The notes below the pieces were generated by a model. It saw only the letters and a program-made list of their open reading frames with translations, was not told the origin of the DNA and searched no databases. This document shows positions 24,429 through 61,625 of a stretch of DNA of 64,000 nucleotides, in pieces (the first letter of the stretch is position 1; each line of letters begins with the position of its first letter). Origin of the DNA: Okamejei kenojei (lineage: Eukaryota); contig CM069131.1 of assembly GCA_035221665.1 (NCBI GenBank), positions 67,952,001-68,016,000 of the forward strand, in the 5' to 3' direction. The translations under genes and the position numbers were made by a program.

Positions 24429-24460
24429 GTGTGTGCGTTCATCAGGGATCACTTTATGCG
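24429..24460 (+). CDS. FRAS1: FRAS1 coding exon 2 (32 nt; G-V-C-V-H-Q-G-S-L-Y-A, start of the first VWC domain)
   Basis: Branch-like ctgac, polypyrimidine tract and acceptor ttttcattctctag|GT; donor GCG|gtaagc; the peptide aligns with human GACVYQDSLLA with the same 32-nt length and phase (recalled from memory). Confidence 0.85.
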
Positions 24461-35830: not shown

Positions 35831-36969
35831 AAATGTTCTCGATGATCAGTCTCTACAACAGCAAGTAATGTTTGTATCAAACAAGAACCAGCTTCCAAGA
35901 TTATTGTGGTCATCCTTCTATATTATCCTTTTAACATTACCATTTTTGCCATGAACCTATTGAAGACGGTTCCAATGTTCTATTCCAGCACCTTACGTTT
36001 TGTTCACAATACAATTATTAGTAATTATGGCTACGATCCACAAGATCAATACTGGTCTGAGACTACATGCATGCTTCCAACTAAGCATACAAATAGAGAA
36101 ACAGGACATCCAGAATTTAAAAGGTACATGGCAGGACTATGGGACTACTGTGAAATAGTATTCTCTTTTCACTGACTCTTTTAAAAACCCTGTTTGTCGG
36201 GAATAAACATTTAAGCTCCTTTCGGGAGCTTTTTAATACCTTTGTTGGGAACTGGGCGAGAGAAGGTAACAGGATGCACTGCATCTCCTCAGAGGAACAG
36301 CGACTCCAGCCTGGATACCTTGTAGAATATCATTACTGATCCTCAGCAAAGCTCTACAACCGCCGATCTGTCACATCTTGCAGTACAGATCGATCTCAAA
36401 TTAATATCCAAGACCAAGACACTGCAGGTTTATCAGTAAATTATTGTTGTTCTTCATTGTGCTTCTTTTGTGATCTAGGATTTTTTCTGCCTTGCTTTGC
36501 AGTGTCATCCCAGAGCACGTCAGGTTCCTGGACGTTTCTTGCTGGCCAAGTCACTTGTGGTGATCTTATAGCATCCACAGTGGAGACCAGCTACTTCACA
36601 AGCTATCTCCATCCCCTTGTGGTTTCTGTGGTGATGCTTTGGTTTCACGGAGAAGTGTCAGGCTCTATTGCTCCTGCCCTCCCTATATGTTCATGGGCTA
36701 GGGCCTTTTCCTACTACTTTTTTATCTGTGTTTGACTTTGTTTGCGCTCTGTCCTCCGGCAAGTAGAGGCTTCTTTCCCATGATTCCTTGCTTTTCAGGT
36801 GTCGCTTTCTGAACATTTTTTCCTGGCAACCTGAGCATGGCAAGGGGTGTGAAGTGAGGTTTCACTTCCATACCTGGCAGTTTGGACAGCCTGCAATGTT
36901 GGAGTTAACTTCAAATATCTATGTTCTTGCAAGTGCTGGCAGTAGGAGAGATTATTGGGGTTGAAATCG

Positions 36970-39900
36970 GCACCCACCGAGGGGCCATACTTCATCCAAA
37001 CCTCCAGGAACCATCACGGGCCCGCCTTCAGCTGCCGAATCTTCTCTTGATGTCAACCTCCTTCGCTCACTTTTAACATCCACTCACTTGTGTTTCCCAA
37101 CAACAAGCAGCGTCAGTTATGATGTTCATGCACTCCTATTTGGGCATGGCTATATAGGGTCTTTTCCTCTCGCCTTCACTAGTGCTTTCTTTTCTTCAGC
37201 GTTGACCAGGGGTGATGACTCACTATCTTCACACACTATGCTAATTTCTGGTGAATTCTGCCTTTGTATTGGTGTTCTCCGGAGATGGTCAGGCTATTTG
37301 ACATCTTTTTGTCTTCTGGCTTTGCCCTCATGGTGAATCCAATGACACTGCAAAGAGGAGTTAGCTTGGTTCTCAATCATCATTAGCTCCAGCTACTTCT
37401 GGACAGTTGTGATACCTTGGTTTTCAGTTACAATTCCGTGGTAGAGTTTCTGATGTCTGTTCCTCCCATGTATGTTCCCTCCACATTGTGTCGAGTGTTG
37501 ATTTGTGTGTGGGTTCCTGTCTTGTGACAAGAATGGCTTGTTACCAGAGAGATCGCTTGGCTTTCAGTGTCGCTATATGCATTTATGGTTAACTACATTG
37601 GCAAATGCTCCTCCGGCACCCATTGAGGCCGTCTTCGTCCTCCCTCGGACCCACCGCGTGGCCGGGGACGTCTTGAGCTGCTGATCCTCTTTGGATGGTA
37701 CACTTCTTTCTTTAACTCATGCTTGTGTTTCCCACCAACAAAGCAAGTCTCAATAAGATACTGAATGCTCTCTGTTAAAGTTCTGGCTGGGATTTTTCCC
37801 CTCCTTGTCATCACTGTGCCTTTCTTTTTTTAATTCACTTGATGAATTGCTGGATGGTTGCAACTTCAGTCAAAAGTTCGCCAGGTATTTGACATCTTTT
37901 TCTTCTGGCTTTGCTCTGATGGTGATCCAATTATTACTGCAAGAGCAAGAGCAGCTTGGTTTTCAATCATTGTTAGCTCCAGCTTCTTCTTGGAACGTTG
38001 TGAATGTGCCTTGGTTTTCGAATAGACTATCGTGGTGGGGTTCGGATGCTCTGTTCTCAATGTATGTTCATTTTTCTTTTGTCCAGGTTGATTTGGAGTG
38101 TTGGGTTCGTCTGTGACAAAAGATAGCCTTCATTTACCATAGATCCTTGTCTTTCAGGTGTGCAATTCTACATGCGTCTAAAGTACTATTGGCATCTTGG
38201 CTGCTCTGTCATCTTCTATCGACCACGGCATTCACGAGGGCCCTTCTTGTCAGTCCAATCCGCCGAGAACCCACCATGGGGCCCCATTCTTCGCTGCGGT
38301 GTTCTCTCTATGGATGGCTCTATCTGTCTTCCTGCTCCCTGGCTGGGTTCTTTCCTCCTCATCATTCACTGGTGGTTTCTTTTGTTTAGTATTTAAATTG
38401 TGATGGCTCCTTCTTCAAGCAAATAGATGCATCATTCTGGAGATTCTGTCTTGCTTGCAGAGCCCTTTCAGAAGTGGTCAGGCTATTTGACATCTTTCTT
38501 CTGGCTTTGCCATGATGGTGAATCTCAATGATGCTGCAAGAAGAGTCCAGCTTGGCTCCCACGGACGTTTGTTCCAGCTGCTTCTCGTTCAGTTGGTGAT
38601 GTGTGGTTTTCCCCAGTGGGACAATCCGTGGTAAGAGTTTTGATGTCCTGTCCTCCCATGTATGTTCACTTCCACATTTGGTAGCGTTGATTTGGTGTGG
38701 GTTCTGTCCTGTGCAAGATAGGCTTCATTACAGAGATCCTTGGCTTTTCAGGGTGTCGCATTCTGCGCATTTGTCAAAACTACCTTGGCAGATGCTTCTG
38801 TTCGTCTTCTCTCCGTCCTTTCGGCGCCTACCGAGGGCTCGTCTTCGGTCCAACCTTCAGAACCCCACCTCGGTGCCCGTCTTCAGCTGCTGAATCCTCT
38901 CTTGGATGCACACCTTGCTCACTTTAACTTCCTTGCTTGTGTTTCCCACCAACAGGCAGTCTCAGTTATGATGCTCATGCTCTCCTGTGAAGTTCTGGCT
39001 GGGTTTTTCCTCCTCGTCATCACTGGTGCTTTTTTTTAAATTTCAGTGTTGAATTGTCTGGATGGTCCAACTTCAGACAAAAGTATGGTCATTCCTCGAG
39101 ATTCCTGGTGTCCTCCAGTTTGGTCAGGCTATTTAACATCTTTCTTCTGGCGTTGCCCTGATGGTGAATCTAATGGACACTGCAAAGAGAGATCAGCTTG
39201 GTTCTCAAATCATCGTTAGCTCCCAGCTGCTTCTGGTCAGTTGTGATGCCTTGGTTTTCCAAGAGACAATCTGTGGTAGGGGTACTGATTGCTTCTGTTC
39301 ATCAATGTATGTTCCTTCTTTCTTTTGTCGAGTGTTGGTTATTTGGGTGTGGGTTCTGTCCTGTGAACAGATAGCCTTCATCAAGAGGATCGCTTGTCTT
39401 TCAAGTGTTCGCGTTCTGCATTTGTCGTAACTACTATTGGCACTTGCTACTCTTCGTCTTCAGCTCCGAACCACTGGAAACCCACCATGGCCCATCTTCA
39501 GCTGCCGGAGTCGCTCTCTAGGTTGGCTCTGTTGTCTTCTCGCTCCCTGAGAGGGAACAGTCACTCTCTTCAACGTCTTGCTTGGTGTTGACCAAAGTGG
39601 GTCATTTGTTGTTAACCTATCTTGTGCTTCTTGATCCCTCGTCTTTTCTTCTTCCTAGCACCCACCAAGGGCACCATCTTCAGCTGTCGAATCCACTTTG
39701 ACAGCAACTTACCCTTTAACATCCTCGCTTGTGTTTCACATCCCAAACAGCATCAGTGTGTGATGCTCATGTTCTCCTGTTTGGTCTGGCTGAGGTCTTT
39801 TCCTCCTCATCATCACTGGTGGTTTCTTTATGTTCAGTGTTGAATTGGTAATGGACTTCCATTTAAGAAATAGATGAATCATTCCTGGAAATTCTGCCCT

Positions 39901-42900
39901 TGCTCAGCTGCTTTGGTCAGTTGTGGATGCCTAGGTTTTTCCAGAGTCAATCCGTAGTTGGGTTCTGATGCTGCTGTTTCTCCCATATATGTTTTCTGCT
40001 CAGTTCATTTCCTCCTCCTTTTTTGTCTGTGTTGTTGGGTGATTGGATATGGTTGCTGTTTGTCCTCGAAAATGATCGGCTTCATGACGGAGATCCTTGA
40101 CTTTCACGTGTCACTTTCAGCATTTGTTGTACCTACCATTGCCATATGCTCCTCTTGTTTTATTTCTTTCTGGAACACCCACCGGGGCCGTCTCAGCTGC
40201 CAAGTCTCTCATGGGACGGCATTGTCAGCCTTACTCACCCCTCGACGGCCCACCTCATTCCCTTTTTAATAGCCTTTAACATTCAATCAAAGAAAGGGCC
40301 TATCCCTTCAACTTTGCATTGCAGCTAGATTATTTCCTACACAGGCCTGAATATCACAAATACTGAGTCTTGAAAAACACTTGCAGGTAAGTATAAGCAA
40401 ATAGGAGAATAAGGCATCAGACAAAGTAAAATGTAAGTTGCCGCTCTCGTGTTGCCTCGTTAAAGACACTCAGCAACCCAATAACGTTCTTTCCAAGAGT
40501 TCAAGAACATCTTCATCAACAGCAGTTTGTTAACACATTGCACCAGCAACACATTCAGAACCGAAAGCACCATTGTCTACTCACTTATGTTTATGTTCAT
40601 TATTTGACCGTCTTCATCTAATAGCGAAGCACTCTCAATTAAACAGAATTGCATCTGTCAACCACTTGGCAGTTAGATTTCAAAGAAACTTCAAACCTCC
40701 TCAATCATTTGCTACTAACATTGTGCACTTGCTCCTCTTCGTCTTCTCTCCGACCTCCAGCACCACCTAGGGCCCATCTTCGTCCAAACATCGTAACCCA
40801 CTATGGGCCCTCTTCAGGCGCGAAACAATTTGTTGGGCGGGGCTTCCATCCGTTCTTCTCGCTCCCTGAGGAGAACCTATCTTCCAATCTTTAAACCGTT
40901 TCGCATGGTTTATTGAAAGTTATTTGTCGTAAACTATTCTTCTCTTCTCCCTGGACACCCACCGCGGGGCCTGTCTTCAGCTGCCGTATCTCTTTTGTAT
41001 GCACACCTTGCTCTCTTTACATCTCGCATGTGGTTTCACACCATTCAAAGAGTTCTGGATGGGTCTTTGTCCTCTTATTTGTCATCACTGTGTGTTTATT
41101 TAGTTTGGTGTTGAATTGGTGATGGTCCATCTTAGGTTAAAAATAGAATGCATTATTCCAGAGAATCTTGCCTTGCTTAAGCAGAGTCCTGCCAGAGATG
41201 GTCAGACTATTTGCCATTTTTTTTTCTGACTTTGGCCCTGATGGTGAATCATGGACACTGTAGAGAGAAGGTCCAGCTGGTTTCCCCATTGATTTAGCTC
41301 GCTACGTCATGGTCAGATTTTGTGATGCCTTGGTTTTCCAGTGACAATCCATGGTAGGGTTCTGATGCTTCCTGTTCCCATAATGTATGTACCTATCTTT
41401 CTTTTGTCCAGTGTTGACGTGCATGTGGGTTCTGTCTATGACAAAGATAGACTTCCCTTACAGAGATCCCTTGGTTTTCAGAGTAGCTTTCTTCATTTTT
41501 CATAACTATCTTGGCACTGTACTTCTCCACACACAGCAGGCTGTCAGGTTATGATGCTCATGCTCTCCTGTTTGCTTCCTGACCTGGTCTTTTCTCCTTT
41601 CATCACTGGTGCTTTCTTTTTATTCAGTGTTGAATTGGCGATGGCTCATCTTCACTCAAAAGGATGCATTCATTACTAGAGTTTTCTAGGTCCTGCCAGA
41701 GCTGGTCAGGCTATTTGACATCTTTCTTCTGGCTTCGCACTGTTGGTGAATCAATGACCACTGCAAAGAGTCCAGCTTGTTTCTCAATCACTGGTTAGCT
41801 CCAGCTACTTCTGGTCAGTTGTGATACACTTGGTTTTCAAAGGGGCAATTCCGTGGCAGGGTTCCAATGCTGCTGTTCCTCAATGTATGTTCCTTCTTTC
41901 TTTTTGAGTGTTTGACTTGGGTGTGGGTTCTATCCTGTGCCGAGGATAGGTTCATTTCCGAGATCCTTGTCTTCAGGTGTCGCGTTTCTGCAATTGTGTA
42001 AACTACTATTGCACTTACTCCTCTTATCTTCCACTTCCGACCTCCGAGCACCACGAGGGCCCGTCTTCATCCAACCTCCAGGAAATCCACCGAGGCCTGT
42101 CTTCAGCTGCCGTGTCCTCTTTTGAAGGTCCATCCGTCTTCCTCGCTCCCCAAGGCTAGATCTTTAACCGTCTCGCTTTGGGTGATGAAACTGTGTCATT
42201 TGTCATAACTCTTTGCCTCCTGCTCCTTCATCTTCTTTCTGGCACCTATTGTGGGCCATCACTCCTCAGGCACCCACTGGGGCCCCGTCTTCAGCTGCGG
42301 ATTTCTTCTCTTGGACGGCACACATTGCATCTTCAACATCCTTGCTGTGCTCCCCAACATCATAAGCGCAGTCAGTTGTGATGCTATGAAATTCCCGTTT
42401 GGTCCTGGATGGTCTTTTCTCCTCGTCATCACTGGTGTTTTCTTTGTTCGGTGTTTGAATTGGTGATGGCTCCATCTTAAGTCAAAATGATTTATTATCT
42501 CCCGGAGATTCTGTTCTTGCTTGCATGAGTAATCCCAAGAGCTTGGTCAGGCTATTTGTCATTTTTCTTTGGCTTTGCCTGAAGGCGAATTCCAATGACA
42601 TGCAAAGAGGAGTCCAGCTTGGTTCTCAATCATTCGGTTAGCTCAGCTACTTCTGTCAGTTGTGATGCCTTGGATTTCCCAGTGGAAAATTCATGTAGAG
42701 TTCTGATGCTCTGTCCCTCCCATGTATTGTTGCCTTCCACATTTTGTAGTGTTGATTTGGGTTGTGGGTTCTGTCCTGTGACAGGATAGGCTTCATTTAC
42801 AGGAGGATCCCTTGGCTTTCAGGTGTAGCATTCTGCATTTGTCTGTAAACTTCCCATTGGCAGACGCTCCGTTCGTCTTCTCTCGTCCTCCGGCACCCAC

Positions 42901-45900
42901 GAGGGTCCGTCTTCGTTTCCAACTCCAGAACCCACTGCGGGGCCGTCTTCAGCTGCTGAATCCTCTCTTGGATGGCACACCTTGCTCAATTTAACTTCCT
43001 CCCTTTTCTGTTTCCCACCAACAGGCAGTCTCGTTTTGAATGCTCATGCTCTCCTGTGAGTCCTGGCCGGGTCTTTCCTCCTCCTCGTCATCACTGGAGC
43101 TTCTTTTAAAAATTCAGTGTTGCTGAGTGGCTCACATCTTTCAGTCAAAAGGATGCGTCATTCCTGGAGTTCTTCAGAGTTGGTCAGAGCTATTTGAAAT
43201 CTTTCTTCTGGCGTTGCCCTGATGGTGAATCAATGACACTGCAAAGGAGAAGAGCAGCTTGGTTCTCCAAATCTCGTTAGTCCAAGCTGCTTCTTGTCAA
43301 GTTGTGATTGCCTTGGTTTCCAAGGACATCTGTGGTAGGGTTCTTGATGCTCCTGTTCCTCAATGTATGTGTCCTTCTATTATTTTGTCGTAGTGTTGAT
43401 TTGGGGTGTGGGTTCTGTCCTGTGACCAAAGAAAGCCTTCATCAAGAGAGATCCATTGTCTTTCAAGTGTCGCTTTCTGCAGTTGCCGTAACTACTATTG
43501 GCTCTTGCCACTCTTTGTCTTCTCTCCGAACACCGGAACCCACCATGGGCCCATCTTAGGTGGCGAGTCCCGCTCTGGATGGCTCTGTTTGTCTTCTCGC
43601 TCCTGAGGCCAGCTCATCTCTTTAACCATCTTTGCTTGGGTGACCAAAGTGGGTCCTTTATTGTAACTATCTTTGCTTCTTGTTCTCTTCTTCATCTCTT
43701 CTCGGCAACACCATGGGCCTTCTTCAGTGTCGAATCCACTTGGACAGCACACCTTAACTTTAAATCCTGCTTGTGTTTTCAACATCATAAAAACAGCATC
43801 AGTTGTGGGCTCATGTTCTTCTGTTTGGTACTGGGCTATGGGTCTTTATTTTTCCTCCTCGTCATCACTGGGTGGTTTATTTTGTTCAGTGTTGAAGTTG
43901 GTATGGCTCCTTCTTCAAGCAAATAGATGCATCATTCCTTGGAGATTCTTGCTTGCTCGCGAGCCCTTTCAGAGCTGGTCAGTGGTATTTGAATCTTCTG
44001 CTGCTTTGCCTCTGATGGTGATGAAGTCAAGACACCGCAAAAGAAGAGTCAGCGTGGTTCCCATCAACATTAGCTCCCGCTGCTTCTGGTCAGTTGTGAT
44101 GCCTTGGTATTTCCCAGAGACAATCCGTAGTTGGGTTCTGTGCTGCTGTTTCTCCCATGTATGTTTTTTGCTTGGTTAATTATCGCTTTCCTTTTGTCTA
44201 GTGTTTGACTTGGACTCCGACAAGGATCGACTTCTTTACAGAGATCCCTTGACTTTCAGGTGGTAACTATTCTGATTTATTTACCCACATTGCCACCTAG
44301 GCACCTCTTTTTATCTTCTACTACGACACCCACCGTTTGGCCCGTCCTCAGCCGCCACGTCCTCTCTTTGGACGGCATTGTCGGGCACTTTCTCACATCG
44401 CAGCCCACCTCACCTCCTTTTAACAGCCTTTAACAATTCAATCAAGAATGACTATTCCTCACTTTGCATTGCAGTAGATAGATTAATTATCACTCTGTCT
44501 ACCTGCCTGAATATCAAATACTGGTCCAGAATTTTACACTTTGCAGGTTCGTAAGTAAGCAAATAGAGAAAATAAAGCAGCCAGACAAAATAAAATGTAA
44601 TTTTGCAGCTCTCGCTGGTGCCTCTTAAAAGACACTCAGCAACCCGACAATTTGTTCTTTTCCAGGTTCAAGACATCTTCCCATCAACCATCAGTATGTT
44701 GAACCACATTGCACAGCAAAAAATTTCAGAACCGAAAGCCCACATTTTTACTCAATTTTGCATTATGTTCATTATTTGGATTCGTCTTCTTCTTAATAGC
44801 CGAAGGCTTCAATTAAACAGAATGCATCGGTCAACCACTTGGGCTGTTTTAGATTTCAAAAGAACTCAACCTCCTCTATATTGGCAACTAACATTGGCAC
44901 TTGCTCCTCTTCGCCTTCTCTCCGACTCTGGCACCCACCGAGGGAACGTCTTCGTCCAACTCGTAACCCACTATGGGCCCGTTCTTCAGCTGCCGTATAA
45001 TCTCTTGGACTGGCTCCATCCCTCTGCCTCAATCCCTGAGGGGCCAGCTCACTCTTTAACCATTTGCTTGGGTATTGAAAATAAGTCATTTTTCGTAATA
45101 CTTTGCTTTTGATATCTTCTTCATCTTCTCCTGGCACCCATCACGGGCCTGTCTTCAGCTGCCGTATCTCTCTTGGATCAGCACAACCTGCTCTCTTCAA
45201 CATCCGCGCTTGTGTTCCCACCGTCAAGCAGAGTCAGTTGTGATGCTCATGAACACCTGTTTGGTCTGGGATGGAGTCTTTTCCTCTCGTTCATCATGGT
45301 GCTTTCGTTAGTTCGGTATTGAATGGTGATGGCTCCATCTTAGGTAAAAAAGATGCATTGTTCTCGGAGATTCTGCCTTGCTGGCAGAGTCCTTCCCAGA
45401 GCTGGTCAGGGCTTATGTGCCATATACTTCTGACTTTGCCATGATGGTGTAATCCAATGGACAATGCAAGAGGTGACCAGTTTGGGTTCCCATTTCATAC
45501 GTTAGGCTCCAGTAGTCTGGGGCAGTTGTGATGCCTTGGTTTTCCGAGTGACAATCATGGTAGGGTTTTGATGCTCCCTGTTTCCTCCCTGTATGTTCTT
45601 CCTCATTTTGTCCAGTGTTGACTTGGTGTGGGTTTGTCTGTGGACAAAGATAGGCTCATTACCAAGTATCCCTTGGCTTTCAGGTGTAGAATTCTGCAAT
45701 TTGTCGTATTATCAGTGGCATAGTCTTCTCTCCGACATCCGGCCCACCACCAAGTGTCCGTCATGAGTGCGAGTTGTATATCTCTTGGGACTGGCTCCCA
45801 TCCGTCTTTTCGCTCCTTGGACCGAGCTCGCTCTTTAACCGGTCTCGCTTGGGTGATGAAAGTAGAGTAATTTGTCCGTAAGGTATCTTTGCATCTTTAA

Positions 45901-48900
45901 TCCTCTTCTTCATCCTCACCTGGCACAAACGAAGATACGTTCTATCTCCGACACTCCATCGCAGGCTATCTTCAGCTCCCATATCCTTCTCTTGGACAGC
46001 GCACCCATGCTCTCTTTATCATCCTCGCTTGTGTGTTTCCCACAAACAAGCAGCGTCAGTTATGATGCTCATGCTCTCCTGTTTGCTCCGGGCCAGGTCT
46101 TTTCCTCTCATCATCACTGGTGGCTTTCTTTTATTCAGTGTTGAATTGGTGATGGCTCCATCTTCACTCGAAAAGATGCATCATTCTTAGAGTTTCCTAG
46201 GAGTCCTCTCAGAATTGGTCAGGCTATTTGACATCTTTCTTCTGCTTTGCCCTGATGGTGAATCCAATGACACGGCAAAGAGTCCAGCTTGGTTCTCAAT
46301 CGCCGCTAGCTCCAGCTACTTCTGGTCAGCTGTGATCCTTGGTTTTCAAAGGGACAATCCGTGGTAGGGTTCTGATGCTGCTGTTCCTCAATGTATGTTC
46401 CTTCTTTCTTTTGTCGAGTGTTGATTTGGGTGTGGGTTCTGTCCTATGATAAGTTAGGCTTCATTTCCAGAGATCCCTTGTCTTTCAGGTGTCGCGTTCT
46501 GCAATTGTCGTAACTACTATTGGCACTTGCTTCTCTTCATCTTCTCTCTGACCTCCAGCACCCGCCAAGGGTCTGTCTTCATCCAACCTCTGGAATCCAC
46601 CGAGAGCCTGTCTTCACTGCCGTGTCCTCTTTTCGGACGGGACCATCCGTTTTCCTTCGATCCCTGAGGGCCCAGCTTACTCTTTAACCATCTCGCTTGG
46701 GTGTTCAAAGTGCGATCATTTGTCAAACTCTTTGCCTCCTGCTCCTCTTCATCTTCTTTTTCGGCACCCACCCTGGGGCCCATCACTCCTCCGGCACCCA
46801 CCGGGAGCCCGGTCTGTCACTGCCAGATTCTTCTCTTGGACAGCACACCTTGCGCTCTTCAACATTCTTTCCATTCTTTCTTTTGTTTCCCCACAACAAG
46901 CAGCGTCAGTTTGTGATGCTCATGAAACTCTTGTTTGGTCCTAGATGGGTCTTTTCCTCCCTCGTCTCATCACTGGTGCTTTCTTTAGTTCGGTGTAGAA
47001 TTGGTTGATGGCTCCATCTTAGGTCAAAAAGATACATTATTCCCGGAGATTCTGCCTTGCTAGCAGAGTGCTCCCTGAGCTGGTTAGGCTATTTGTCTTT
47101 TTTTTTTCTGGCTTTGCCCTGAAGGTGAATCCAATGACAATGCAAAGAGGAGTACAGCTTGGTTCTCAATCATCGTTCACTCCAGCTTACATCTGGTCAG
47201 TTGTGATGCCTTGGTTTTTCCCCAGTGACAATCCATGGTAGGGTTCTGATGCTCCTGTTCTTCCCCTGCATGTTCCTTCCTCATTTTGTCCAGTGTTGAC
47301 TTGGGTGTGGGTTCTGTCTTGTGACAAAGATAGGCTTTATTACCGGAGATCCCTTGGCTCTCAGGTGTCGTGTTCTGCATTTGTTGTAACTACCATTAGC
47401 ACTTGCTCCTATTCGTCTTCTCTCCAACCTCTGGCACCCTCCGAGGGCCCGTCTTCAGCTGCCGAGTCCTCTCTTGGGCGGCTTCATCCGTCTTCCTCGC
47501 TCCCTGAGGGCCCAGCTCACTCTCTTTATCCGTCTCGTTTGGGGTGACGAAAGTGGGTCATTTGTCCATCGCTATCTTTGACACTGGCGCCTCTTCTTCA
47601 TCTTCTGTCTGGCACCCACCACGGTAAGGTCCAACCTCCAGCAACCACCATGGGCCCGTCTTCAGTTCCGAATCCTCTCTTGGATGACACACCTTGATCT
47701 CTTCAACATTTTCGCTAGTATTTCCCACCAACTAGCAGCTTCAATTATGATGCTTATGCTCTGCTGCTTGGGCCTGGCTGGGTCTTTTCCTCCTCGTCAT
47801 CACTGGTGCTTTCTTTTCTTCAGTGTTCAATTGGTGATGGGCTCCATCTTCAAGCCAAAATAGATGCATCAGTCCTAGAGATTCTGCGTTTCTAGTAGAG
47901 GTCCACTAGATCTGGTCAGGCTAATTTACATCTTTCTTCTGGCTTTGCCCTGATGGTGAATCCAATGACACTGCAAAGAGGAGTCCAGCTTGGTTCTCAA
48001 TCATCGTTCGCTCCAGCTATTTCTCGTCAGTTGTGATGCCTTGGTTTTCCCAGTGACAAATCGTGGGTAGAGTTCTGATGCTCCTGTCCCTCCCATGTAT
48101 GTTCCATCCACATTTTGTAGTGTTGATTTGGGTGTGGGTTCTGTCCTGTGACAAGGATAGGCTTCATTACCAGAGATCCCTTGGCTTTCAGGTGTCGCAT
48201 TCTGCATTTGTCGTAACTAACATTGGCAGATGCTCCTGTTCGTCTTCTCTCCGTCCTCCGGCACCCACCGAGGGGTCCGTCTTCGTCCAACCTCCAGAAC
48301 CCACCGCGGGCCCGGCTTCAGCTGCTGAATCCTCTCTTGGATGGCACACCTTGCTTACTTTAACTTCCTCGCTTGTGTTTCCCACCAACAGGCAGTCTCA
48401 GTTATGATGCTCATGCTATCCTGAGAAGTCCTGGCTGGGTCTTTTCCTCCTCCGCGACATCACTGGTGCTTTTTTTTAAATTCAGGGTTTGAAATGCTGA
48501 TGGTCCCAACTTCAGTCAAAAAGATGCATCATTCCTGGAGATTCCTGGAGTTCTTCCAGAGTTGGTCAGGCTATTTGACATCTTTCTTGCCCTGATGCTG
48601 AATCCAATGACACTGCAAATAGAAGAGCAGCTTGGTTCTCAATCATCGTTAGCTCCAGCTGCTTCTGGTCAGTTGTGATGCCTTGGTTTTTTCCAAGGAG
48701 ACAATCTGTGGTTAGGGTTCTGATGCTCCTGTTCCTCAATGTATGTTCCTTCTTTCTTTTGTCGAGTGTTGATTTGGGTTGTGGGTTCTGTCCTGTGACC
48801 AAAGAAAGCCTTCATTAAGAGAGTTCCCTTGTCTTTCAAGTGTCGCGTTCTGCATTTGTCGTAACTGCTATTGGCACTTGCTCATCTGTCTTCTCTCCGA

Positions 48901-51900
48901 CCACCGGAACCCACCATGGGCCCATCTTCAGGTGCGAGTCCGCTCTTGGATGACTCTGTCTGTCTTTCTCACTCCCTGAGGGCACAGCTCACTCTCTTTA
49001 ACTGTCTTGCTTGGGTGACCAAAGTGGGTCATTTGTTGTAACTATCTTTGCTTCTTGATCCTGTCTTCATCTTCTCTCCGGCAACCCACCACGGGCCCGT
49101 CTTCAGCTGTCTAATCCACTTGGACAGCACGCCCTACACGTTAACATCCTCGCTTGTGTTTCACCATCACAAACAGCTATCAGTTGTGATCCCATGTTCT
49201 TCTGTTTGGTCTGGCTGAGTCTTTTCCTCCTCATCATCATGGTGGTTTCTTTTGTTCAGTGTTGAATTGGTAATGGCTCCATCTTCAAGCAAAATGATGC
49301 ATCATTCCTGGAGATTCTGCCTTGCTTGCAGAGCCCTTTTCAGAGCCGGTCAGGCTATTTGACATCTTTCTTCTGGCTTTGCCCTGATGGTGAATCCAAT
49401 GACACTGCAAAGAAGAGTCCAGCTTGGTTCCCCACCAACATTAGCTCCAGCTGCTTCTGGTCAGTTGTGATTGCCTTGGTTTTCCCAGAGACAATCCGTA
49501 GTTGGGTTCTGATGCTGCTGTTTCTCCATGTATGTTTTCTGCTCGGTCATTTCCACTTCCTTTTGCCTAGTGTTGACTTGGGACGTGGTGTTTGTCCTCG
49601 GACAAAGGATCGGCTTCATTACCAGAGATCCCTTGACTTTCAGGTGTCACTTTCAGCATTTATTGTACCCACCATTGCCCACATGCTCCTCTTCTTTATC
49701 TTCTCTCCGACACCCACCGTGGGCCCGTCCTCAGCCGCCAAGTCCTCACTTGGACGGCATTGTCGGCCTTTCTCACCCCTCGACAGCCCACCTCACTCCC
49801 TTTTAACAGCCTTTAACAATTCAATCAAAGAATGACCTATTCCTCACTTTGTCATTGCAGCTAGATAGATTAATTATTACTCTTTTCTACCCAGCCTGAA
49901 TATCAAATACTGGTCTGAATTACACTTGCAGGTTCGTAAGTATGCAAATAGAGAAATAAGGCATCCAGACAAAATAAAATGTAAATTGCAGCTCTCGCTG
50001 TTGCCTCTTTAAAATGACACCTCAGCAACCCGGACAATTGTGTTCTTTCCAGGTTCAAGAACATCTTCCCATCAACCATCAGTTTGTTGAAACACATTGC
50101 ACCAGCAACACATTTCAGAACTGAAAGAACATTTCTACTCACTTTTGCATTATGTTCATTATTTGGATATCGTCTTCATCTTAATTGCCGAAGCTCAATT
50201 AAACAGAATGCATCGATCAACCACTTGGCTGTTAGATTTCAAAGAACCTCAACCTCCTCTATCATTGGCAACTAACATTGGCACTTGCTCCTCTCCGACT
50301 TCCGGCACCCACCGAGGGCCCTTCTTCGTCCAACCTCCGTAACCCACTATGGGCCCGTCTTCAGCTGCCGTGTAATCTCTTGGATGGCTCCATCCCTCTT
50401 CCTCAATCCCTGAGGGCTTAGCTCACTCTTTAACTGTCTTGCTGGGGTTATGAAAATAAGTCATTTGTCGTAAACTACCTTTAGCTTCTTGATACTCTTC
50501 TTCATCTTCTCCCTGGGACCCATCACGTGCCTGTCTTCAGCTGCCTTATCCTCTCTTGGACAGCACACCTTGCTCTCTTTAACATCCTCGCTTGTGTTTT
50601 CCCACCGTCAAGCAGAGTCAGTTGTGATGCTCATGACACCTGTTTGGTCCTGGATGGCTCTTTTCCTCCTCGTCATCACTGGTGCTTTTTTAGTTCGGTA
50701 TTGAATTGGTGATGGCTCCATCTTAGGTAAAAAAGATGCGTTGTTCTCAGAGATTCTGCCTTGTAGCAGAGTCCCTCCCAGAGCTGGTCAGGCTATTTGC
50801 CATTTTTCTTCTGAATTTGCCGTGATGGTGAATCCAATGACACTGCAAAGAGGAGACCAGCTTGGTTCCCCATCAACGTTAGCTCCAGCTACGTTCTCTG
50901 GTCAGTTGTGATGCCTTGGTTTTCCAAGTGACAATCCATGGTAGGGTTCTGATGTTCCTGTTCCTCCCCTGTATGTTCCTTCCTCATTTTGTCCAGTGTT
51001 GGACTTGGGTGTGGGTTCTGTTTGTGACAAAGATAGGCTTCATTACCAGAGATCCCTTGGGCATTCAGGTGTAGCGTTCTGCATTTGTCGTAACTATCAG
51101 TGGCCACTCGTTTCTCTCCGACCTCCGGCACCCACCGAGGGTCCATCATGAGCTGCCGAGTAATCTCTTGGACGGCTCCATCCGTCTTCCTCGCTCCTTG
51201 AGGACCTAGCTCGCTCTTTAAAACCGTCTCGCTTGGGTGATGAAAGTTAGGTCATTTGTCGTAAGTATCTTTGCATCTTGAGCCTGTTTCTTCATCCTCA
51301 CCCTGGCACCCAACGAGGACACGTCTAACCTCCGACACTCACCACGGGACCATCTTCAGCTCCCGTATCCTCTCTTGGACAGCACACCATGCTCTCTTAA
51401 ACATTCCTCGCTTGTGTTTCCCACAAACAAGCAGCGTCAGTTATGATGCCTCATGCTCTCCTGTTTGCTCCTGACCTGGTCTATTCCTCCTCATCATCAC
51501 TGGTGCTTTCTTTTATTCAGTGTTGAATTGGTGATAGCTCCATCTTCACTCGAAAAGATGCATCGATTACTAGAGTTTCCTAGAGTCCTTCCAGAGTTGG
51601 TCAGGCTATTTGACATCTTTCTTCTGGCTTTGCCCTGATGGTGAATCCAATGGCCACTGAAAAGAGTCCAGCTTGGTTCTCAATCACCGTTAGCTCCAGC
51701 TATTTCTGGTCAGTTGTGATTCCCTTGGTTTTCAAAGGGGCAAATCCGTGGCAGGGTTCCGATGCTGCTGTTCCTCAATGTATGTTCCTTCTTTCTTTTG
51801 TCGAGTGTTGACTTGGGTGTGGGTTCTGTCCTGTGACGAGGATAGTCTTCATTTCCAGAGATCCTTGTCCTTCAGGGTGTCGCGTTCTGCAATTGTCGTT

Positions 51901-54900
51901 ACTATTGGCACTCGCTCCTCTTCATCTTCTCTCCGAACCTCTGGCACCCACGAGGGCCCATCTGCATCCAACCTTCCGGAATCCACCATCTGTCTTCCTC
52001 GCTCCCTGAGGACTCAGCTCACTCTTTAACCGTCTCGCTTGGGTGATGAAACTGGGTCATTTGTCGTAACTCTTTGCCTCCTGCTTCTCTGTCATCTTCT
52101 TTCTGGCACCTACTCTGGGCGCATCACTCCTCCGGCACCCACCGGGCCCCGTCTTCAGCTGCCGATTCATCGCTTGGACGACATACATTGCGCTCTTCAA
52201 CATCCTTGCTTGTGCTCCCCACCAACAAGCAGCGTCAGTTTTGTGATGTTCATGAAAATCCTGTTTGGTCCTGGATGGGTCTTTTCCAATTCGTCATCAC
52301 TGCTGTTTTCTTTAGTTCGGTTGTTGAATTGGTGATGGCTCCATTCTTAGGTAAAAAAGATGCATTATTTCCAGAGATTCTGCCTTGCTAGCAGAGTCCT
52401 CCAGAGCTTGTCAGGCTATTTGCCATTTTTCTTCTGGCTTTGGCCCTGAAGGCGAATCCAATGACACTGCATAAGAGGGAGTCCCGCTTGGTTCTCAATC
52501 ATCGTTAGCTCCAGCTACTTCTGGTCAGTAGTGATGCCTTGGTTTTCCAGTGACAATCCATGGTAGAGTTCTGATGCTCCTCCTATCCTCCCATGTATGT
52601 TCCTTCCACATTTTGTCCAGTGTTGATTTGGTTGTGGTTCTGTCCTGTGACAAGGATAGGCTCATTACCAGAGATCCCTTGGCTTTCAGGTGTCGCATTC
52701 TGCATTTGTCGTATCTACCATTGGCAGATGCTCCTGTTCGTCTTCTCTCCGACCTCCGGCACCCACAAGAGGGTCCGTCTTCGTCCAACGTCCAGAACCC
52801 ACCGCGGGCCCGTCTTCAGCTGCTGAATCCTCTCTTGGATGGCACACCTTGCTTACTTTAACTTCTCGCTTGTGTTTCCCACCAACAGGCAGGTCTCAGT
52901 TTGATGCTCATGTTCTCTGTTGTGAAGTCTGGCTGGGTCTTTTCCTCCTCCTCGTCATCACTGGTGTTTTTTTAAAATTCAGTGTTGAATTGCTCATGGT
53001 CCCAACTTCAGTCAAAAAATGATGCGTCAATATTCCTGGAGTTCTTCCAGAGTTGGTCAGGCTATTTGACAATCTTTCTTCTGCAGTTGCGCTGATGGTG
53101 AATCCAATGACACTGCAAAGGGAAGAGCAGCTTGGTTCTCAATCATCGTTAGCTCCGGCTGCTTCTGTCTTTCACGGTGTCGCGTTCTGACCCGTTTTTT
53201 CATTTGTCGTAACTTACTATTGGCGCTTGCTCTCTTCGTCTTCTCTCCGACTACCGGAAACCCACCATGGGCCCATCTTCAGGTGCCGAGTCTGCTCTGG
53301 ATGGCTATGTCTGTCTTCCTCGCTCCCTGAGGGCACAGCTCACTCTCTTTAACCGTCTTGCTTGGGTGACGAAAGTGGGACATTTGTTGTAACTATCTTT
53401 GCTTCTTGATCCTCCTCTTCATCTTCTCGGGGTCCGTCTTCAGCTGTCTAATCCACTTGGACAGCACACCTTACACTTTAACATCCTCGCTTGTGTTTCA
53501 CCATCAACAAACAGCATCAGTTGTGATGTTCTTGTTTCTCCTGTTTGGTCCTGGCTGAGTCTTTTCCTCCTCGTATCACTGGTGGTTTCTTTTGTTCAGT
53601 GTTGAATTGGTAATGCTCCATCTTCAAGCACATAGATGCATCATTCCTGGAGATTCTTGCCTTGCTTGCAGAGCCCTTTCAGAGCTGGTCAGGCTATTTG
53701 ACATCTTCTTCTGGCTTTGGCCCTGATGGTGAATCCAATGCCACTGCAAAGAAGAGTCCAGCTTGGTTTCCCCATCTACATTAAGACTCAGCTGCTTCTG
53801 GTCAGTTGTGATGCCTTGGTTTTCCCAGGCAATCCGTAGTTGGGTTCTGATGCTGCTCGTTTCTCCCATGTTGTTTTGTCTGCTCGTCATTTCCGCTTCC
53901 TTTTGCCTAGTGTTGACTTGGATGTTGGGGTTTGTCCTCTGACAAGGATCGGCCTTTCATTACCAGAGATCCCTTGACTTCATCAGGTGTCACTTTCAGC
54001 ATTTATTGTACCACCATTGCCGACATGCTCCTCTTCTTTATCTTCTCTCCGACACCCACGTGGGCCCGTCCTCAGCCGCCAAGTCCTCACTTGGACGGCA
54101 TATTGTCGGCCCTTCGACCTTTCCTAGACGTCAGACCCACCTCACTCCCGTTTAACAGCCTTTTAACAAAAATTTCAAAATCAAAGAAAAGAATAGAAAA
54201 GACCTATTCCTCACCTTTGCATTGCAGGGCTAGATAAGATTAATTATCACTCTTTGCTACCCAGCCTGAATATCAAATACTGGTCAGAATTACACTTGCC
54301 GTTCGGGTTCGCAAGCAAGCAAATAGAGAAATAAGGCATCCAGACAAAATAAAATGCAAATTGCAGCTCTCGCTGGTGCCTCTTAAAAAGGACACTCAGC
54401 AACCCGACTATTGTTCTTTCCAGGTTTCAAGAACATCTTCCCATCAACCATCAGTTTGTTGAACCACATTGCAGCAGCAACACATTTCAGACCCAAAAGC
54501 ACATTTCTACTCAACTTTTTGCATTATGTTCATTTATTTGGGATCGTCTTCTTCATCATTACATGAATAGCCGAAGCACTCTCAATTAAACAGAATGCAT
54601 TCTGTCAACCACTTGGCGTTAGATTCAAAGAACCTCAATAAACCCTTAAACCGCTCTATATCTGCTTCCATGTTCCGCGCATTTTGCAAGTAACATTATA
54701 GCAATTGTCTTCTTCGTCTTCTTCTCCGACCTGTGGCACCCACTGAGGGCCCGTCATGAGTGCGAGTAATCTCTCTTGGGAACGGCTCCTCCGTCTTCCT
54801 CACTCCCTGAGTGGCCCATGTCACTCTTTGCACCGTCTCGCTTGTTGGGTGATGAAAGTAGGTGATTTGTCATAACTATCTTTGCGTCTTCATCCTCACC

Positions 54901-57900
54901 CTGGCTCCCACCGCGGTGCCCGTCTAACCTCCTGGGCACCCACCGCTGGGCCCGTCTTCAGCTGCTGTATCCTCTCTTGGAACAGACACACCATGCTCTC
55001 TTTAACATCCTCGCTTGTGTTTTCCCACCAACAAGCAGCATCATTAGTTATGATGTCGTGCTCTCCTGTTTGCTCCTTGCCTGGTCCTTTTCCTCTTCAT
55101 CATCACTGGTGCTTTCTTTTATTCAGTTGGTGAATTGATGATGGCTCCACTCCGAGATGCATCAATTCCTAGAGATTCCTAGAGTCCTTCCAGAGTTGGG
55201 TCCGGCTATTTGGACATCTTTCGTCTGGCTTTGCGATGTGAATCCAATGACACTGCAAAGAGTCCAGCTTGGTCTCATTCGCTCGTCAGCTCCAGTACTT
55301 TCTGGTCAGTTGTGATTCCCTTTGGTTTTCAAAGGGACAATCAGTGGTAGGGTTTCTGATGCTGCTAATGTATGTTCCTTCTTTCTTTTGTTCGCGAGTG
55401 TTGACTTGGGGGTGGGTTCTGTCCTTTGAGAGGAAGGTTCATTCCCAGAGATCCTTGTCTTTCAGGTGTCGATTTTGCTATTGTCGGTAATTACGTATTG
55501 CCACTTGCTCCCCTTCATCTTCACTCGACCTCGGCACCCGAGGGCCCCTCTTCATCATCCGCGGAATCCACTGGAGGGACCAGCTTCAGCTTGCGTGTCC
55601 TCTTTTGGACGGGGGCCATCGTCTTCCTCGCTCCCTGAGGGCCTCGCTGCTCAATCTGTTACACCGTCCTCACTTGGGTGTTTTGAAAAGTGGGTCATTG
55701 CGAGTCGTTCACTCTTTGCCGCCTGCTCCTCTTCTCTTCTTGCCGACACCCACCGTGGGCCATCACTCCTCCGGCACCACCGGGGGGGCCCGTCTTTAGC
55801 TGTTGTTTCTTCTCTTGGGGATGGACACACCTTACGCTCTTCAACATCCTTGCTTGTGTTCCTCACCAACAAGCAGCATCAGTTGTGACTGCTCATTAAC
55901 TCGGTTTGCTCTGGATGGGTCTTTTCCTCTCGTCAGCATGGTGCTTTTCTTTAGTGCGGTACTGTGAATTGGTGATGTGCTCCATCTTAGGTCGAAAAGA
56001 TGCATTATTCTCCCGGAGATTCTGATCCTTGCTTAGCAGAGTCCTCCAGAGCTGGTTCAGGGCTTATATGCACTGTTTCTTCTGCTTTGCCTATGGGAAT
56101 CAATAACACTCGCAAAGAGAGTACAGCTTGGTTTTCAATCATCGTTAGTCCATGCTACATCTGTCAGCTGTGACGGCCTATTGGTTTTCCTAGTGACAAG
56201 CCATGGTAGGGTCTGTATGATCCTGTCTTCCCTGCATGTGTTTCCTTTCTCATTTTGTCCATTGTGACTTGGGGGGGGTTTGTCTGGTGACAAGATAGGC
56301 TGTATGTACCGGAGATCCTTGGGCTCTCGGTGTCGTGTTCTGCATTTGTCGTAACTACGCAATTGGCACTTGTCAACTATTCGTCTTCTCTACCAACCTC
56401 TCCGACACCCTCCGAGGGCCCATCTTCGCTAGCTTGCGAGTACGTCTCTTGGTTGGATCCATCCATCTTCTCACTCCTGTTGGGCCCAGCTCACTCTCTT
56501 TATCCGCTGCTTGGGTGCGAAAGTGGGTCATTTGTCATCGCTATCTTCCTCCCCTCTGCTAATTTGCTCCTCTTCTTTTACTCTGTCCCTGCACCCACCG
56601 CGCGTGAAGGTCCACCCTCCGACACCACGCGGCCCATCTTCAGCTCCGAATCCTCTCTTGGCGGGACCACCCTTGATCTCTTTAACTTCATTCGCTTGTG
56701 TTTCCAGCATCAAGCGCATTCAATTATGATGCTCATTGCTCTCTGCTCTGGGGCCTGGCGGGTCTTTTCCTCATCATCACTGGTATTTCATTTTGTTTAT
56801 TGTTAATTGCTGATGGCTCCTTCTTCAGTCCAAAGATACATCTGTCCTGGAGATTCTGCCTTGCTCGTAGAGTCCTCCAGAGCAGGACAGGCTAGTGACA
56901 TATTTCTTTGGCTTTGCCCTTTGTTGAATCCACAATGACACTGCAAGATGAGGAGTTCTCAGCTTGGTTTCAATCATCGCGTTAGCTCCAGCTACTTTGG
57001 TCAGTTGTGGATGCTTGGATTCCAGTTACAATCATGGTAGAGTTCTGATGACTCTGTTTTCCTTTGTATGTTCTTCCATTTTATATCAGTTGTTGACTTT
57101 GTGTGTGTGGTGGTTTGGTGACAAGGATAGGCTTCATTACCAGAGATTTCTTGGCTTTCAGGTGGTGTGCATTCTGCATTGTGTCGTAATTACCATTGGC
57201 AGTTGCTCCTCTTCCATTTCTCTACCGTCATCCGGCACCCACCGTGGGCCCGTCTTCCTCAAACCTCCGGAACCCACCACGGGCCCGCCGTCTTCAGCTG
57301 CTGTATCCTCTCTTGGACGGCACACCTTGCTCACTTTAATTCCTCACGTATGAGTTTCCCACCAACAAACAGTGTCTGTTATGATGCTCATGCTCTCCTG
57401 TGAAGTCCTTGCTGGGTCTTTTAGCCTCTCGTCATCTACTGGTGTTTCATTTGATCGCGTTGTTGAATTGCTGATGTTTGATGTTGTCAAAACAATTGCA
57501 TCTCATCTCCTGGAGTTCTTCCAGAGTTGGTTAAGGCTATTTGACATCTTTCTTCTGACTCTTTGCCCTGATGGTGAATCCAATGACACTGCAAAAGAGG
57601 AAGAGGAGACCAGCTTGGTTGTCAATCATCATTAGCTCCAGCTACTGGATCTGGTCTAGTTGTGATTGATGCCTTGGTTTTCCAAGACAGACAATCCGTG
57701 GTAGGGTTCTGATGCTCCTGTTCCTCAATTGTATGTTACTTCTTTCTTTTATCCAGTGTTGACGAGGGTGTGGGTTCTGTACTGTGACAAAAGATAGGGC
57801 ATCATTACCAGAGATCTCTTGTCTTTCAGATGTCGCGCGTTCTGCATTTTGTCGTAACTACTATTTGGCACTTGCTCTCTTTGTCTTCTCTCCGACCCAC

Positions 57901-59330
57901 CAGGAAGATAACCCACCATGGGCCCGTTCTTTAGCTGGCCGAGTCCACTCTTGGGACGGCTCGGCTCTATCCGTCTTTCCTCGCTCCCTAAGGGCACAGC
58001 TCACTTCTCTTTAAACCGTCTTGCCTTGGGGTGACCAAAGTGGGTCATTTGTCGTAATAAAATATCTTTACTTCTGGATCCTCTTCTTCATCTTCTCTCC
58101 TGGCACCCAACGGCCACCAACACGGGTCGTCTTCAGCTGTCGAACCCACTTGGACGGCACAACACCTTACTCTCTTGAACATCCTCGCTTGTGTTTCCCA
58201 CAAACTAACAAACAGCGTCAGTTGTGATGCTCATGTTCTCTGTTTGGTCCTGGCTGAGTCTTTTCCTCCTCGTCATCACTGGTGGTTTCTTTTGTTCAGT
58301 AGTTGAATTGGTGATGGCTCCATCTTCAAGCAAATAGATGCATCTTTTCCTGGAGATTCTGCCTTGCTAGCAGAGCCCTTTCAGAATTTCGGTTGTCAGT
58401 CTATTTGATATCTTTCTTCTTTCTTTGCCCTGCTGTTGAATGCAATGACACTGCAAAGAAGAGTCCAGCTTGGTTCCCATCGGCGTTAGCTCCAGCTACT
58501 TCTTGTCAGTTGCAATGTCTTGGTTTTCCCAAGGACAATCTTGTGTTGGGGTTCTGATGCTGCTGTTCCTCAAATGTATGTTTCCTGCTTGTTCATTTCC
58601 TCCTCTTTTTGTCTAATGTTGACTTGGATGTGGTGTTTTTCCTTTGACAAGGATAGGCGTCATTACCAGAGATCCCTTGACTTTCAGGTGCACTTTCAGC
58701 ATTTATTGTACCTGCGATTGCCACACGCTCCACTTCTTTATCTTCTCTCCGACACCCACGGTGGGCCTGTCCTCAGACGCCAAGTCCTCTATTGGACGGC
58801 ATTGTCGTCCTTTCTCACCCCTCGACAGCCCACCTCACTCCCTTAAACAGCCTTTAACAATTCAATGAAAAAATGACCTATTCCTCACTCTGCATTGCAG
58901 CTGGATAGATTAATTATCACTCTTTCTACCCAGCCTGAAGTTCAAATACTGGTCTGATTTACTCTTGCAGGGTTCGTAAGTAAGCGAATAGAGAAATAAG
59001 GCATCCCGACAAAATAAGATGTAAATTGCAGCTCTTGCTGTTCCCTCTTAAGACACTCAGCAACCCGGACAATCGTTCTTTTCCAGATTCAAGAACATCT
59101 TCCCATCAAGCACCAGTTTGTTGAACCACATTGTGCCAGCGGACACATTTCAGAACCGAAAGCACATTTCTTCTCACTTTTGCATTTGTGCATTATTTGG
59201 ATAGTTTTTCATCTTAATAGCGAAAGCACTCTCAATTAGAAAGAATTTGCATCTTGTCAACCACTTGGCTATTAGATTTTCAAAGAAACTCAACCTCCTC
59301 TATCTTCTCTGCTTCATGTTCCCGCGCTTT
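36970..59330. repeat. Hierarchical tandem array: ~26 monomers of ~0.5-0.86 kb in five blocks closed by ~450-bp spacers
   Basis: Marker gtgttgaattggtgatggctccatctt counted 26 times by eye, e.g. 45315, 46138, 46993, 47823, 48485, 49259; spacers start at ~40263, 44419, 49801, 54151 and 58843. Confidence 0.95.
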
Positions 59331-60056
59331 TAAGGTCAAGCTCATCTTGGGGCGACAGTTCTCTCTAACAACTCCTGCATGTCTTCCAACTCACCTCTTC
59401 ACAACCTACTTTCTAAGCCAAACTCAACCTTTTCTTCTGGTTTTACATAGTCCATTTACCAAAACCCTAAAACCTCTCAGGTCAGGCACTAGATATAGGC
59501 ACAGTTTTTTATCAAACACCATTCACACACCAACCGTGTCCCATGAATCGCGAGCAAGTATTATGAAGTCTCTAATGTTAAGATTTCCAGAAAATCTTTA
59601 ACAGTCATTTTACCAATCACCAGTAGCCTTCATTACAGCATCAAATGTTTTGTTGAGATAATAAAAATTAAACATGCTAATCACACCCCGATCCATAAGT
59701 TGGAGGAGGGATGTAGTGTTCAGTAAAAGATAAACTTGAAAATTTCTGTTCCTGCCACTTTTACGTTGTCACAATGCCATTTACTAATAAATTATGACAC
59801 ATGCTACAAAGTCTGAAACATCAATTTTTCATCTGAACTATACTTGCATGATTCTTAATTAAGCATTAAAATAAGAAATAGGACATCTAGACATAATAAA
59901 TGCAAAACAGCAGACTTAGGGAGACAATTCTCTCCGTGGACGGATCACGTTTTGCAGGATCACATACACAACCTGGCCAAGTAAGCTCACTGGCCTTCAG
60001 TTGAGTCTGACAGCTGAGCTCTGATAGCACTGATCTCATTCCTTCAGATAAATCTA

Positions 60057-61129: not shown

Positions 61130-61625
61130 GTGAATCAGTGCGGGGTGGATAGATGGCGGGGCTGGGGGGTGGGGTTAGAAGGCAATCGGTGCGGAATGGA
61201 TGGATTGAGGCAGGTGAATTAGTAGTTGGTTGGACTAGGTAAAATTGTGAGGGGAGAGGACCAGGGATGCCAGTGGTGTTGAATGGCGGGGTTCAGTACG
61301 GGATGGTATGGGCGTAGACAAAAATGCTGGAGAAACTCAGCAGGTGAGGCGAGCATCTATGGAGCGAAGGAAATAGGCAACGTTTCGGGTCGAGACCCTT
61401 CTACAGACTGTCCACCCCATTCTTCATGAATGGGAGGATCAGTACAGGATGGATGGGGGAGGGGGGAGAGAGATCAGCGCAGGATGAATGGGGGGGGCGT
61501 CAGTACAGTGTGGAACGGAGGGGTCTGTGCAAGATGAATGGGGGATCACTACAGGATGAATGAGGGGAAGGGCGGGGGGGGGAAAGGTGCAGAGTAAAAT
61601 GGAGGGTGGGTCAGTACGGGATGAA
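61130..61625. repeat. Degenerate G-rich minisatellite (tcagtacaggatgaatggggg-like), interrupted by a hammerhead-family repeat at 61315-61410
   Basis: Repeated (g/a)tcagt(a/g)c(a/g)ggatgaatggg units. Confidence 0.7.

Follow-up and report, generated by a model that had tools for sequence, protein, structure and literature searches.

A three-tier tandem array with ordered monomer types in a 64-kb window of the Okamejei kenojei genome

Results and Discussion

Genomic setting of the array

The window analyzed here, a stretch of 64,000 nucleotides of contig CM069131.1 (assembly GCA_035221665.1) from Okamejei kenojei, consists of CpG-depleted, vertebrate-type DNA. LINE relics were detected in it as Pfam matches to reverse transcriptase and endonuclease, together with many copies of a short interspersed repeat, which we take to be related to skate/shark SINEs. 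A scaffold gap of 500 N occupies positions 34418-34917, and the tandem array begins 2 kb into the next contig. Searches against Rfam gave no matches, ARAGORN predicted no tRNA, and blastn of the segment 47780-50300 against phages returned none. To the left of the array lies an older degenerate monomer fragment (36498..36813; monomer HMM E 3e-17). The 760-bp segment 36161-36913 was considered as an LTR insertion, being bounded by a 5-bp direct repeat, and was rejected, as it has no LTR (TG...CA) ends. Additionally, a 17-bp satellite begins 3.4 kb from the array, with scattered unit lengths (17 bp in 26 intervals, 18 bp in 15 and 16 bp in 8).

Two plus-strand exons lie left of the gap: a first one resembling a signal peptide (15681-15753) and a second one of 32 nt flanked by canonical splice sites (24429-24460). 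They presumably correspond to the start of FRAS1. The FRAS1 domain plan, as outlined in PMC2855323, which offers no sequence for comparison, consists of a signal peptide followed by vWC domains. The window yielded no vWC-type third exon for this candidate host gene, and a wider exon scan left of the gap revealed nothing recognizable. Should both the FRAS1-like name and the scaffold join hold, the array would be intronic; it probably does lie within an intron of this candidate host gene, which we treat as a lead only.

Layout of blocks and spacers

Anchor and HMM searches located 26 monomers and five spacers in the region from 36968 to about 59330; monomer HMM matches span 36968-58853, and the last spacer ends at about 59311-59330. 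An array of this period is out of reach of Tandem Repeats Finder, the period limit of which was 500. Block 1 (36968..40248) comprises a partial tail, G (37157), H (37790; E-like and short), an F/D hybrid (38346), E (39001) and a truncated F (39794). It is followed by spacer 1 (40249..40713), delimited by the spacer HMM and the junctions, which is captured flank with a derived short junction. Block 2 (40714..44403) contains a half-monomer, A (41061), B (41586), a C/D hybrid (42411), E (43069) and a truncated F (43845), and block 3 (44886..49786) contains a half-monomer, A (45274), B (46096), C (46947), D (47780), E (48437) and a truncated F (49217); the spacers behind them, spacer 2 (44404..44885) and spacer 3 (49787..50270), both have the derived short junction. 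Block 4 (50271..54135) is built of a half-monomer, A (50656), B (51478), a C/D hybrid (52277), E (52935) and a truncated F (53557). Spacer 4 (54136..54677) bears the ancestral junction, at which the right flank extends ~23 nt further than in spacers 1-3. Block 5 (54678..58828) consists of an A-type tail, B (55083), C (55917), D (56760), E (57414) and a truncated F (58256), and spacer 5 (58829..59330) is the right flank in its original state, passing into unique DNA without a break.

The order of the five blocks is, consequently, G,H,F/D,E,F / A,B,C/D,E,F / A,B,C,D,E,F / A,B,C/D,E,F / B,C,D,E,F. A half-monomer was scored after each of spacers 1-4; block 5 is without half-monomer and A core and has an A-type tail only. 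Only block 3 is complete. Four large private deletions, all out of monomer register, were observed: ~100 bp in F of block 1, 300 bp in A of block 2, 43 bp in B of block 4 and 160-200 bp in E of block 4. Spacers start at 40249, 44404, 49787, 54136 and 58829, so that the periods of ~4.2, 5.4, 4.35 and 4.7 kb proposed in a preceding sequence-only reading of this DNA were measured as 4155, 5383, 4349 and 4693 bp; the monomer orders given there for four blocks (ABCEF, ABCDEF, ABCEF and BCDEF) were recovered by the anchor and HMM searches as well. Monomers were measured at 0.65-0.85 kb, and its unit of ~0.8 kb does not suit the D type, which is ~0.65 kb long. The three-tier nested pattern is real.

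Monomer types and internal duplications

The three short motifs of the first tier occur exactly 13, 5 and 8 times in the array and never in the 41.6 kb outside it, and this array-only occurrence shows that the pattern is not due to chance. The earlier claim that motifs are duplicated in each monomer held for part of the types: self-alignment revealed an internal duplication in two of the four type consensuses, namely B (81% over 52 bp) and E (69% over 87 bp), and none in the A or C/D consensus.

The tree of 26 monomer cores, which is midpoint-rooted only and in which E of block 4 is partly misaligned owing to its deletion, groups the monomers by type (support 96 for B, 100 for F, 90 for A, 97 for C and 98 for E together with H); for the D copies, support is low (38-62). 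Among the 24 monomers compared by distance (F of block 1 and E of block 4 were omitted), the nearest neighbor was of the same type in 20 cases and of the same block in none, and the mean p-distance was 0.086 within types (24 pairs) versus 0.152 between types (252 pairs). Thus similarity follows type, not block, both in the tree and in the distances, as the higher-order organization put forward from the letters alone had predicted. The base markers on which the types had been defined fared less well, as those of A and C are not diagnostic and the C/D copy of block 4 bears the A marker. Pyrimidines make up 61% of the plus strand of the monomers, and the CpG o/e is 0.45-0.49.

Hybrid monomers and kinship of the blocks

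At diagnostic sites, the monomer read as ‘C’ in blocks 2 and 4 proved to be a C/D hybrid, C-like to position 113 and D-like from position 202; it has the length of a D monomer (658 bp) and the same switch interval in both copies. The block-2 hybrid has the C state at 5 of 7 left sites and the D state at 13 of 14 right sites; in the block-4 hybrid the corresponding values are 7 of 7 and 12 of 14. Likewise, the ‘D’ of block 1 is an F/D hybrid, F-like to position 197 and D-like from position 216. The C/D switch implies that one monomer length was lost in register, leaving the hybrid behind. Hence the supposed loss of D in blocks 2 and 4 is correct in that each has one monomer fewer, and incorrect in that the remaining ‘C’ is a C/D hybrid. 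The two kinds of hybrids also bear out the proposed in-register unequal exchange.

The variant gaaggcgaat has exactly two occurrences, at 42581 and 52448, as had been reported. In monomer B, 10 of the 13 two-versus-two sites group blocks 2 and 4, with eight derived states shared by blocks 2 and 4 and two by blocks 3 and 5. The other monomers do not follow: none of the three such sites in E and two of the six in F plus spacer favor blocks 2 and 4, and the A core has no site for this pair against two for blocks 3 and 4. Spacers 4 and 5 share ~23 nt of flank absent from spacers 1-3, and at all four internal junctions the spacer is joined to an identical monomer position. Block 5 differs from block 3 in its junction and in one entire monomer unit, and the number of clean private substitutions is 27 in F of block 5 and 3 in F of block 3. 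Judging from these sites, blocks 2 and 4 are sister copies, and the two-block period of ~9.5 kb suggested earlier is supported to this extent by the B sites and the hybrids. It is not supported by blocks 3 and 5, which are not clean duplicates, by E, F and the A core, which add nothing to it, or by the junction of spacer 4, which is ancestral. One clean 9.5-kb duplication evidently does not account for everything, and the order of duplications appears only partly settled, as B favors the pairing of blocks 2 and 4, while E, F and A do not.

Origin of the spacers

Spacer 5 continues straight into unique DNA, where a degenerate DDE_1 transposase fragment was recognized on the minus strand (59613-59768; Pfam E 8.7e-4, 19.3 bits, under the 22-bit cut-off). 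The same fragment scored 0.98 to DDE_1 clusters in Atlas (recognition 2849), and we assume it to be of the pogo/Tigger type. Broken minus-strand frames extend from this relic toward the spacer, the right 170 bp of which presumably derive from a transposase tail; judging from these frames and this resemblance, the relic probably continues to about 59130, that is, into the spacer. The central 60 bp of the spacer we take to be similar to a retroposon 3' end. The spacer is thus captured flank, probably with transposon debris, and no dedicated element, a point missed by the sequence-only reading.

Five diverged same-strand paralogues of a 130-bp spacer part occur at 34971, 35974, 59745, 61623 and 62050. 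They all lie to the right of the gap, which indicates that local duplication has long been under way at the locus; a flank piece recurs near-identically at 61621-61807. No copy of the monomer or of the spacer motif was found in the 34.4 kb that precede the gap.

Spacers 3 and 5 bear, on the same strand, a cassette of 41 nt flanked by canonical splice sites (49895-49935 in spacer 3), the donor being present in spacer 2 as well. A conserved micro-exon in the spacer motif was considered and rejected, since the alignment shows that the splice sites are not preserved in the outside paralogues. It is very improbable that the array is a higher-order repeat that is young and still changing, derived from dead coding sequence and placed in a long second intron, that of a FRAS1-like gene, in which each block would add one such cassette and the number of blocks would tune inclusion of the frame-shifting 41-nt exon; if this were true, the block number would set the output of the host gene.

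Sequencing error and reliability of the assembly

For 19 of the 26 copies, comparison with leave-one-out type consensuses yielded 805 small indels (656 of them of 1 bp) and 1021 substitutions with a ts/tv ratio of 0.92. The type-diagnostic changes, scored in 22 of the 26 monomers, comprised 44 transitions and 41 transversions. The changes private to one copy in the same number of monomers comprised 73 transitions, 164 transversions, 142 insertions and 136 deletions, i.e., 278 indels versus 237 substitutions, with a ts/tv of 0.45, near the random value of 0.5. The indel/substitution ratio was 0.87 in 21 same-type pairs, while 21 pairs of repeats from the left side of the gap gave 0.29 (ts/tv 1.29), the latter being a small control of 2.1 kb aligned, which itself has 3.7 indels per 100 bp. 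Short indels are described as the commonest consensus error of long reads in PMC8081667. Much of the copy-to-copy difference, about half or more, is consequently error, which the sequence-only reading had missed. The raw divergence of 8.6% between blocks versus 15.2% between monomers, to be set against the <5% that the Willard definition asks of blocks, is inflated by error in both values; a crude ts/tv mixture estimate would put the true divergence of blocks roughly at 1-5%. The copy number, in turn, depends on a noisy contig end. In practical use these data are a warning that divergence, copy number and marker variants are not to be trusted here at face value.

The same data raise the question of whether the number or order of copies is partly an assembly artefact, arising from concatenated haplotypes, from overlapping noisy reads with a 9.5-kb slip or from collapse of a longer array; even so, at least two real block types would remain. 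Such an artefact would agree with the position of the contig end beside a gap, the error-like spectrum of changes, the near-continuous diagonal at 9.0-9.9 kb and the near-identical flank piece at 61621-61807, and false duplications of about read length are known to arise at contig boundaries, according to the same source (PMC8081667). We nevertheless regard it as rather unlikely, as the shared hybrids, the eight derived B sites and the two junction types go beyond random error, blocks 3 and 5 are set apart by the junction and an entire monomer unit, and clean private substitutions are distributed unevenly between F of block 5 and F of block 3 (27 versus 3).

Coding potential of the monomers

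In the consensus core of 22 copies, every one of the six frames contains 4-8 stops; the best frame, with four stops and a longest run of 77 codons, is unexceptional under a Markov null (P 0.89 and 0.87). B and E share type-specific deletions of 10 bp and 1 bp, B having also one of 3 bp, and the frame is also broken by an internal duplication of 35 bp (counted by eye) that B, D and the half-monomer carry. Among 52 diagnostic changes no synonymous excess was found in any frame (best p 0.088). The distribution of diagnostic substitutions over codon positions (25/29/15) was not significantly biased (chi-square about 4.5, by hand).

A weak period-3 signal was registered in two of six segments at p 0.008 and in a third at 0.05; under the Markov null it gave p 0.021 for the core and p 0.006 for the B tail. 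Of 87 background windows, 3 reached the same level, and the signal was absent from the E and D tails. The frame concerned is acidic and lies on the minus strand, with G highest at codon position 1, and one copy is open in it for 69 codons (48191-48397). Along with the 61% pyrimidine skew, this signal indicates that the monomer is not random DNA.

Protein searches added little. Pfam searches of 25 and 62 stretches of the window gave within the array only matches of E 0.02 and 0.03, far under the cut-offs and taken as chance. A word-index search of three array stretches, which covered longer proteins only and is weak evidence, revealed no relative; together, the protein searches drew on three reading frames and the spacer. 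The best Atlas value for 50892-51251 (minus strand) was 0.77 (recognition 1621), which is uninformative. Full-library phmmer with the 69-aa acidic stretch gave three matches (E 1e-6 to 4e-4) to unrelated tandem-repeat proteins; they were rejected, as 0-21 residues were aligned and the scores are sums of tiny matches.

The periodicity, the acidic minus-strand frame and its 69-codon open copy would also be expected of a living repeat-exon gene (NBPF/Olduvai-, mucin- or titin-like) with frames masked by sequencing error. However, the stops sit in the consensus of 22 copies and not in single copies, the type-specific indels break the frame, synonymous changes in the acidic frame number 15 of 52 versus 12.5 expected, and the three phmmer matches are to unrelated proteins, so that we consider such a gene highly unlikely. 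As judged from its sequence, the array is no working repeat-exon gene, and the kinship with such genes mentioned in the sequence-only reading is not borne out, coding constraint being absent. The simplest account, which these features suggest, is that the monomer descends from an ORF that was dead before the monomers multiplied.

Another source of the monomer, with or without the flank, might be a catalogued transposable element or satellite of cartilaginous fishes, partly expanded in tandem. The purine-rich minus strand, the residual periodicity, the same orientation as the adjacent transposase relic and the five nearby diverged paralogues of the 130-bp spacer motif are in line with this origin. 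We find it decidedly unlikely, as no Pfam match under E 0.01 was obtained in the array stretches, neither monomer nor spacer motif recurs in the 34.4 kb before the gap, and the sole segment bounded by a 5-bp direct repeat lacks TG...CA ends.

Proposed origin of the array

Taken together, the data are probably best explained by local, neutral, non-coding nested tandem duplication, which would have produced a macrosatellite-like higher-order repeat via successive duplication and unequal exchange; ‘local’ holds here within the 64-kb window. A purine-rich minus-strand sequence, probably a dead ORF, may first have gained short internal duplications (the first tier). The tree shows head-to-tail expansion to about six monomers, which diverged into types (the second tier). 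The junctions show a subsequent duplication that reached from inside the run of monomers to about 0.5 kb within the right flank; transposon debris was thereby captured as the ‘spacer’, giving a 5.4-kb unit that was copied to five blocks (the third tier). Finally, misaligned exchange or slippage between adjacent monomers could have caused gains and losses of whole monomers, leaving the observed C/D and F/D hybrids. Selected function is most likely absent.

If upheld on accurate reads, the array would be a compact record of the birth of a non-centromeric higher-order repeat, in which internal duplication, monomer expansion, flank capture and whole-monomer exchange with datable hybrids are all recorded. 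It would represent a tidy case of the accepted unequal-crossover model, with no new mechanism.

Comparison with known systems

No description of a comparable array was found in the literature covered by our search, most subscription papers being outside it, and the array is thus only weakly established as undescribed. The definitions of higher-order repeats used below follow PMC8122249 and PMC9584774.

The criterion of Willard, collinear monomer types in successive blocks, agrees with the arrangement found here, with whole-monomer losses. As in primate alpha-satellite of this type, there are ordered diverged types, blocks that appear closer to one another than adjacent monomers are, and variants arising by loss of whole monomers. 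Unlike alpha-satellite, with its 171-bp monomer and uninterrupted arrays, the array has monomers of 0.65-0.85 kb and five blocks in 22 kb, its blocks carry unique flank, and nothing indicates a centromere. Apart from the ordered types, only the 17-bp satellite nearby would speak for a centromeric alpha-satellite-like array. The CENP-B box core has no match on either strand of the array, only one block is complete, and the surroundings are ordinary, SINE/LINE-rich and gene-bearing. A centromeric nature is therefore scarcely conceivable, and the kinship with alpha-satellite raised by the earlier reading is not retained.

With the NBPF 3mer higher-order repeat, or Olduvai triplets, of about 4.8 kb composed of 1.6-kb monomers (PMC9584774), the array shares a non-centromeric higher-order unit of similar size and kb-scale monomers about 15-20% apart. 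As that paper describes them, NBPF monomers each contain two domain-encoding exons and form tandems of 7-19 canonical copies, whereas the array has no coding constraint and a single complete block. At least three complete tandem copies define a canonical higher-order array in PMC9584774; here one of the five blocks is complete.

Finally, macrosatellite units are given in PMC8122249 as 3.3 kb for D4Z4, 3 kb for DXZ4 and 1.4 kb for NBL2. The array resembles them as a multi-kb tandem unit at one locus, with periods of 4.2-5.4 kb and five spacers, and differs from them in its few copies, internally repetitive unit and composition, which is not CpG-rich. The array behaves like a higher-order repeat of the Willard type, and in size it corresponds to a low-copy macrosatellite.

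Duplicated segments and repeats around the array

Five diverged paralogues of the 130-bp spacer motif, all on one strand, were detected in the window at 34971, 35974-36136, 59745-59905, 61623-61734 and 62050-62342, with none left of the 500-N scaffold gap, and they constitute an older tier of local duplication. A near-identical copy of the left flank of the array was found at 61621-61807, where the segment 36017-36160 is joined directly to 36920-36966; the 760 bp which separate 36160 and 36920 in the left flank, and which are bounded by a 5-bp direct repeat, are absent from this copy. The copy either arose by duplication recently or is an artefact of the assembly.

Two of the spacers carry a 41-42-nt plus-strand cassette with a pyrimidine-rich acceptor and a GTAAGT donor (49895-49935 in spacer 3 and 58934-58975 in spacer 5). 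Since the same filter returned 12 plus-strand matches over the whole window, the cassette is likely a chance occurrence.

On the minus strand of the right flank, a strong acceptor site is followed by broken protein-like frames (60150-60515), which gave no Pfam match and are possibly a further part of the degenerate DDE_1 transposon relic. A 17-bp satellite of about 70 copies, with 13% indels, starts at 62782 and continues beyond the window end (62782-64000+).

Retroposon relics and candidate exons left of the gap

A 5'-truncated L1/Tx1-like retroposon (about 29000-31815, minus strand), with RVT_1 and weak zf-RVT matches, retains open stretches of 389, 191 and 209 codons, whose length suggests that base calls are more accurate on this side of the gap. 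At 1400-4480, LINE fragments that are nested and in part inverted yielded RVT_1 and Exo_endo_phos matches, and an inverted match is located at 1492-2335. Two retroposon 3' relics, at 12976-13652 (minus strand) and 22300-23050 (plus strand, with an ALKBH8_N match), presumably derive from L2-like retroposons.

As for the candidate FRAS1-like host gene, a CpG-rich stretch occupies about 14.3-16.5 kb, and two candidate plus-strand exons were recognized, a signal-peptide-like first one (15681-15753) and a 32-nt second one with canonical splice sites (24429-24460); no third exon was found within the 64-kb window. We take these two exons to resemble the start of FRAS1.
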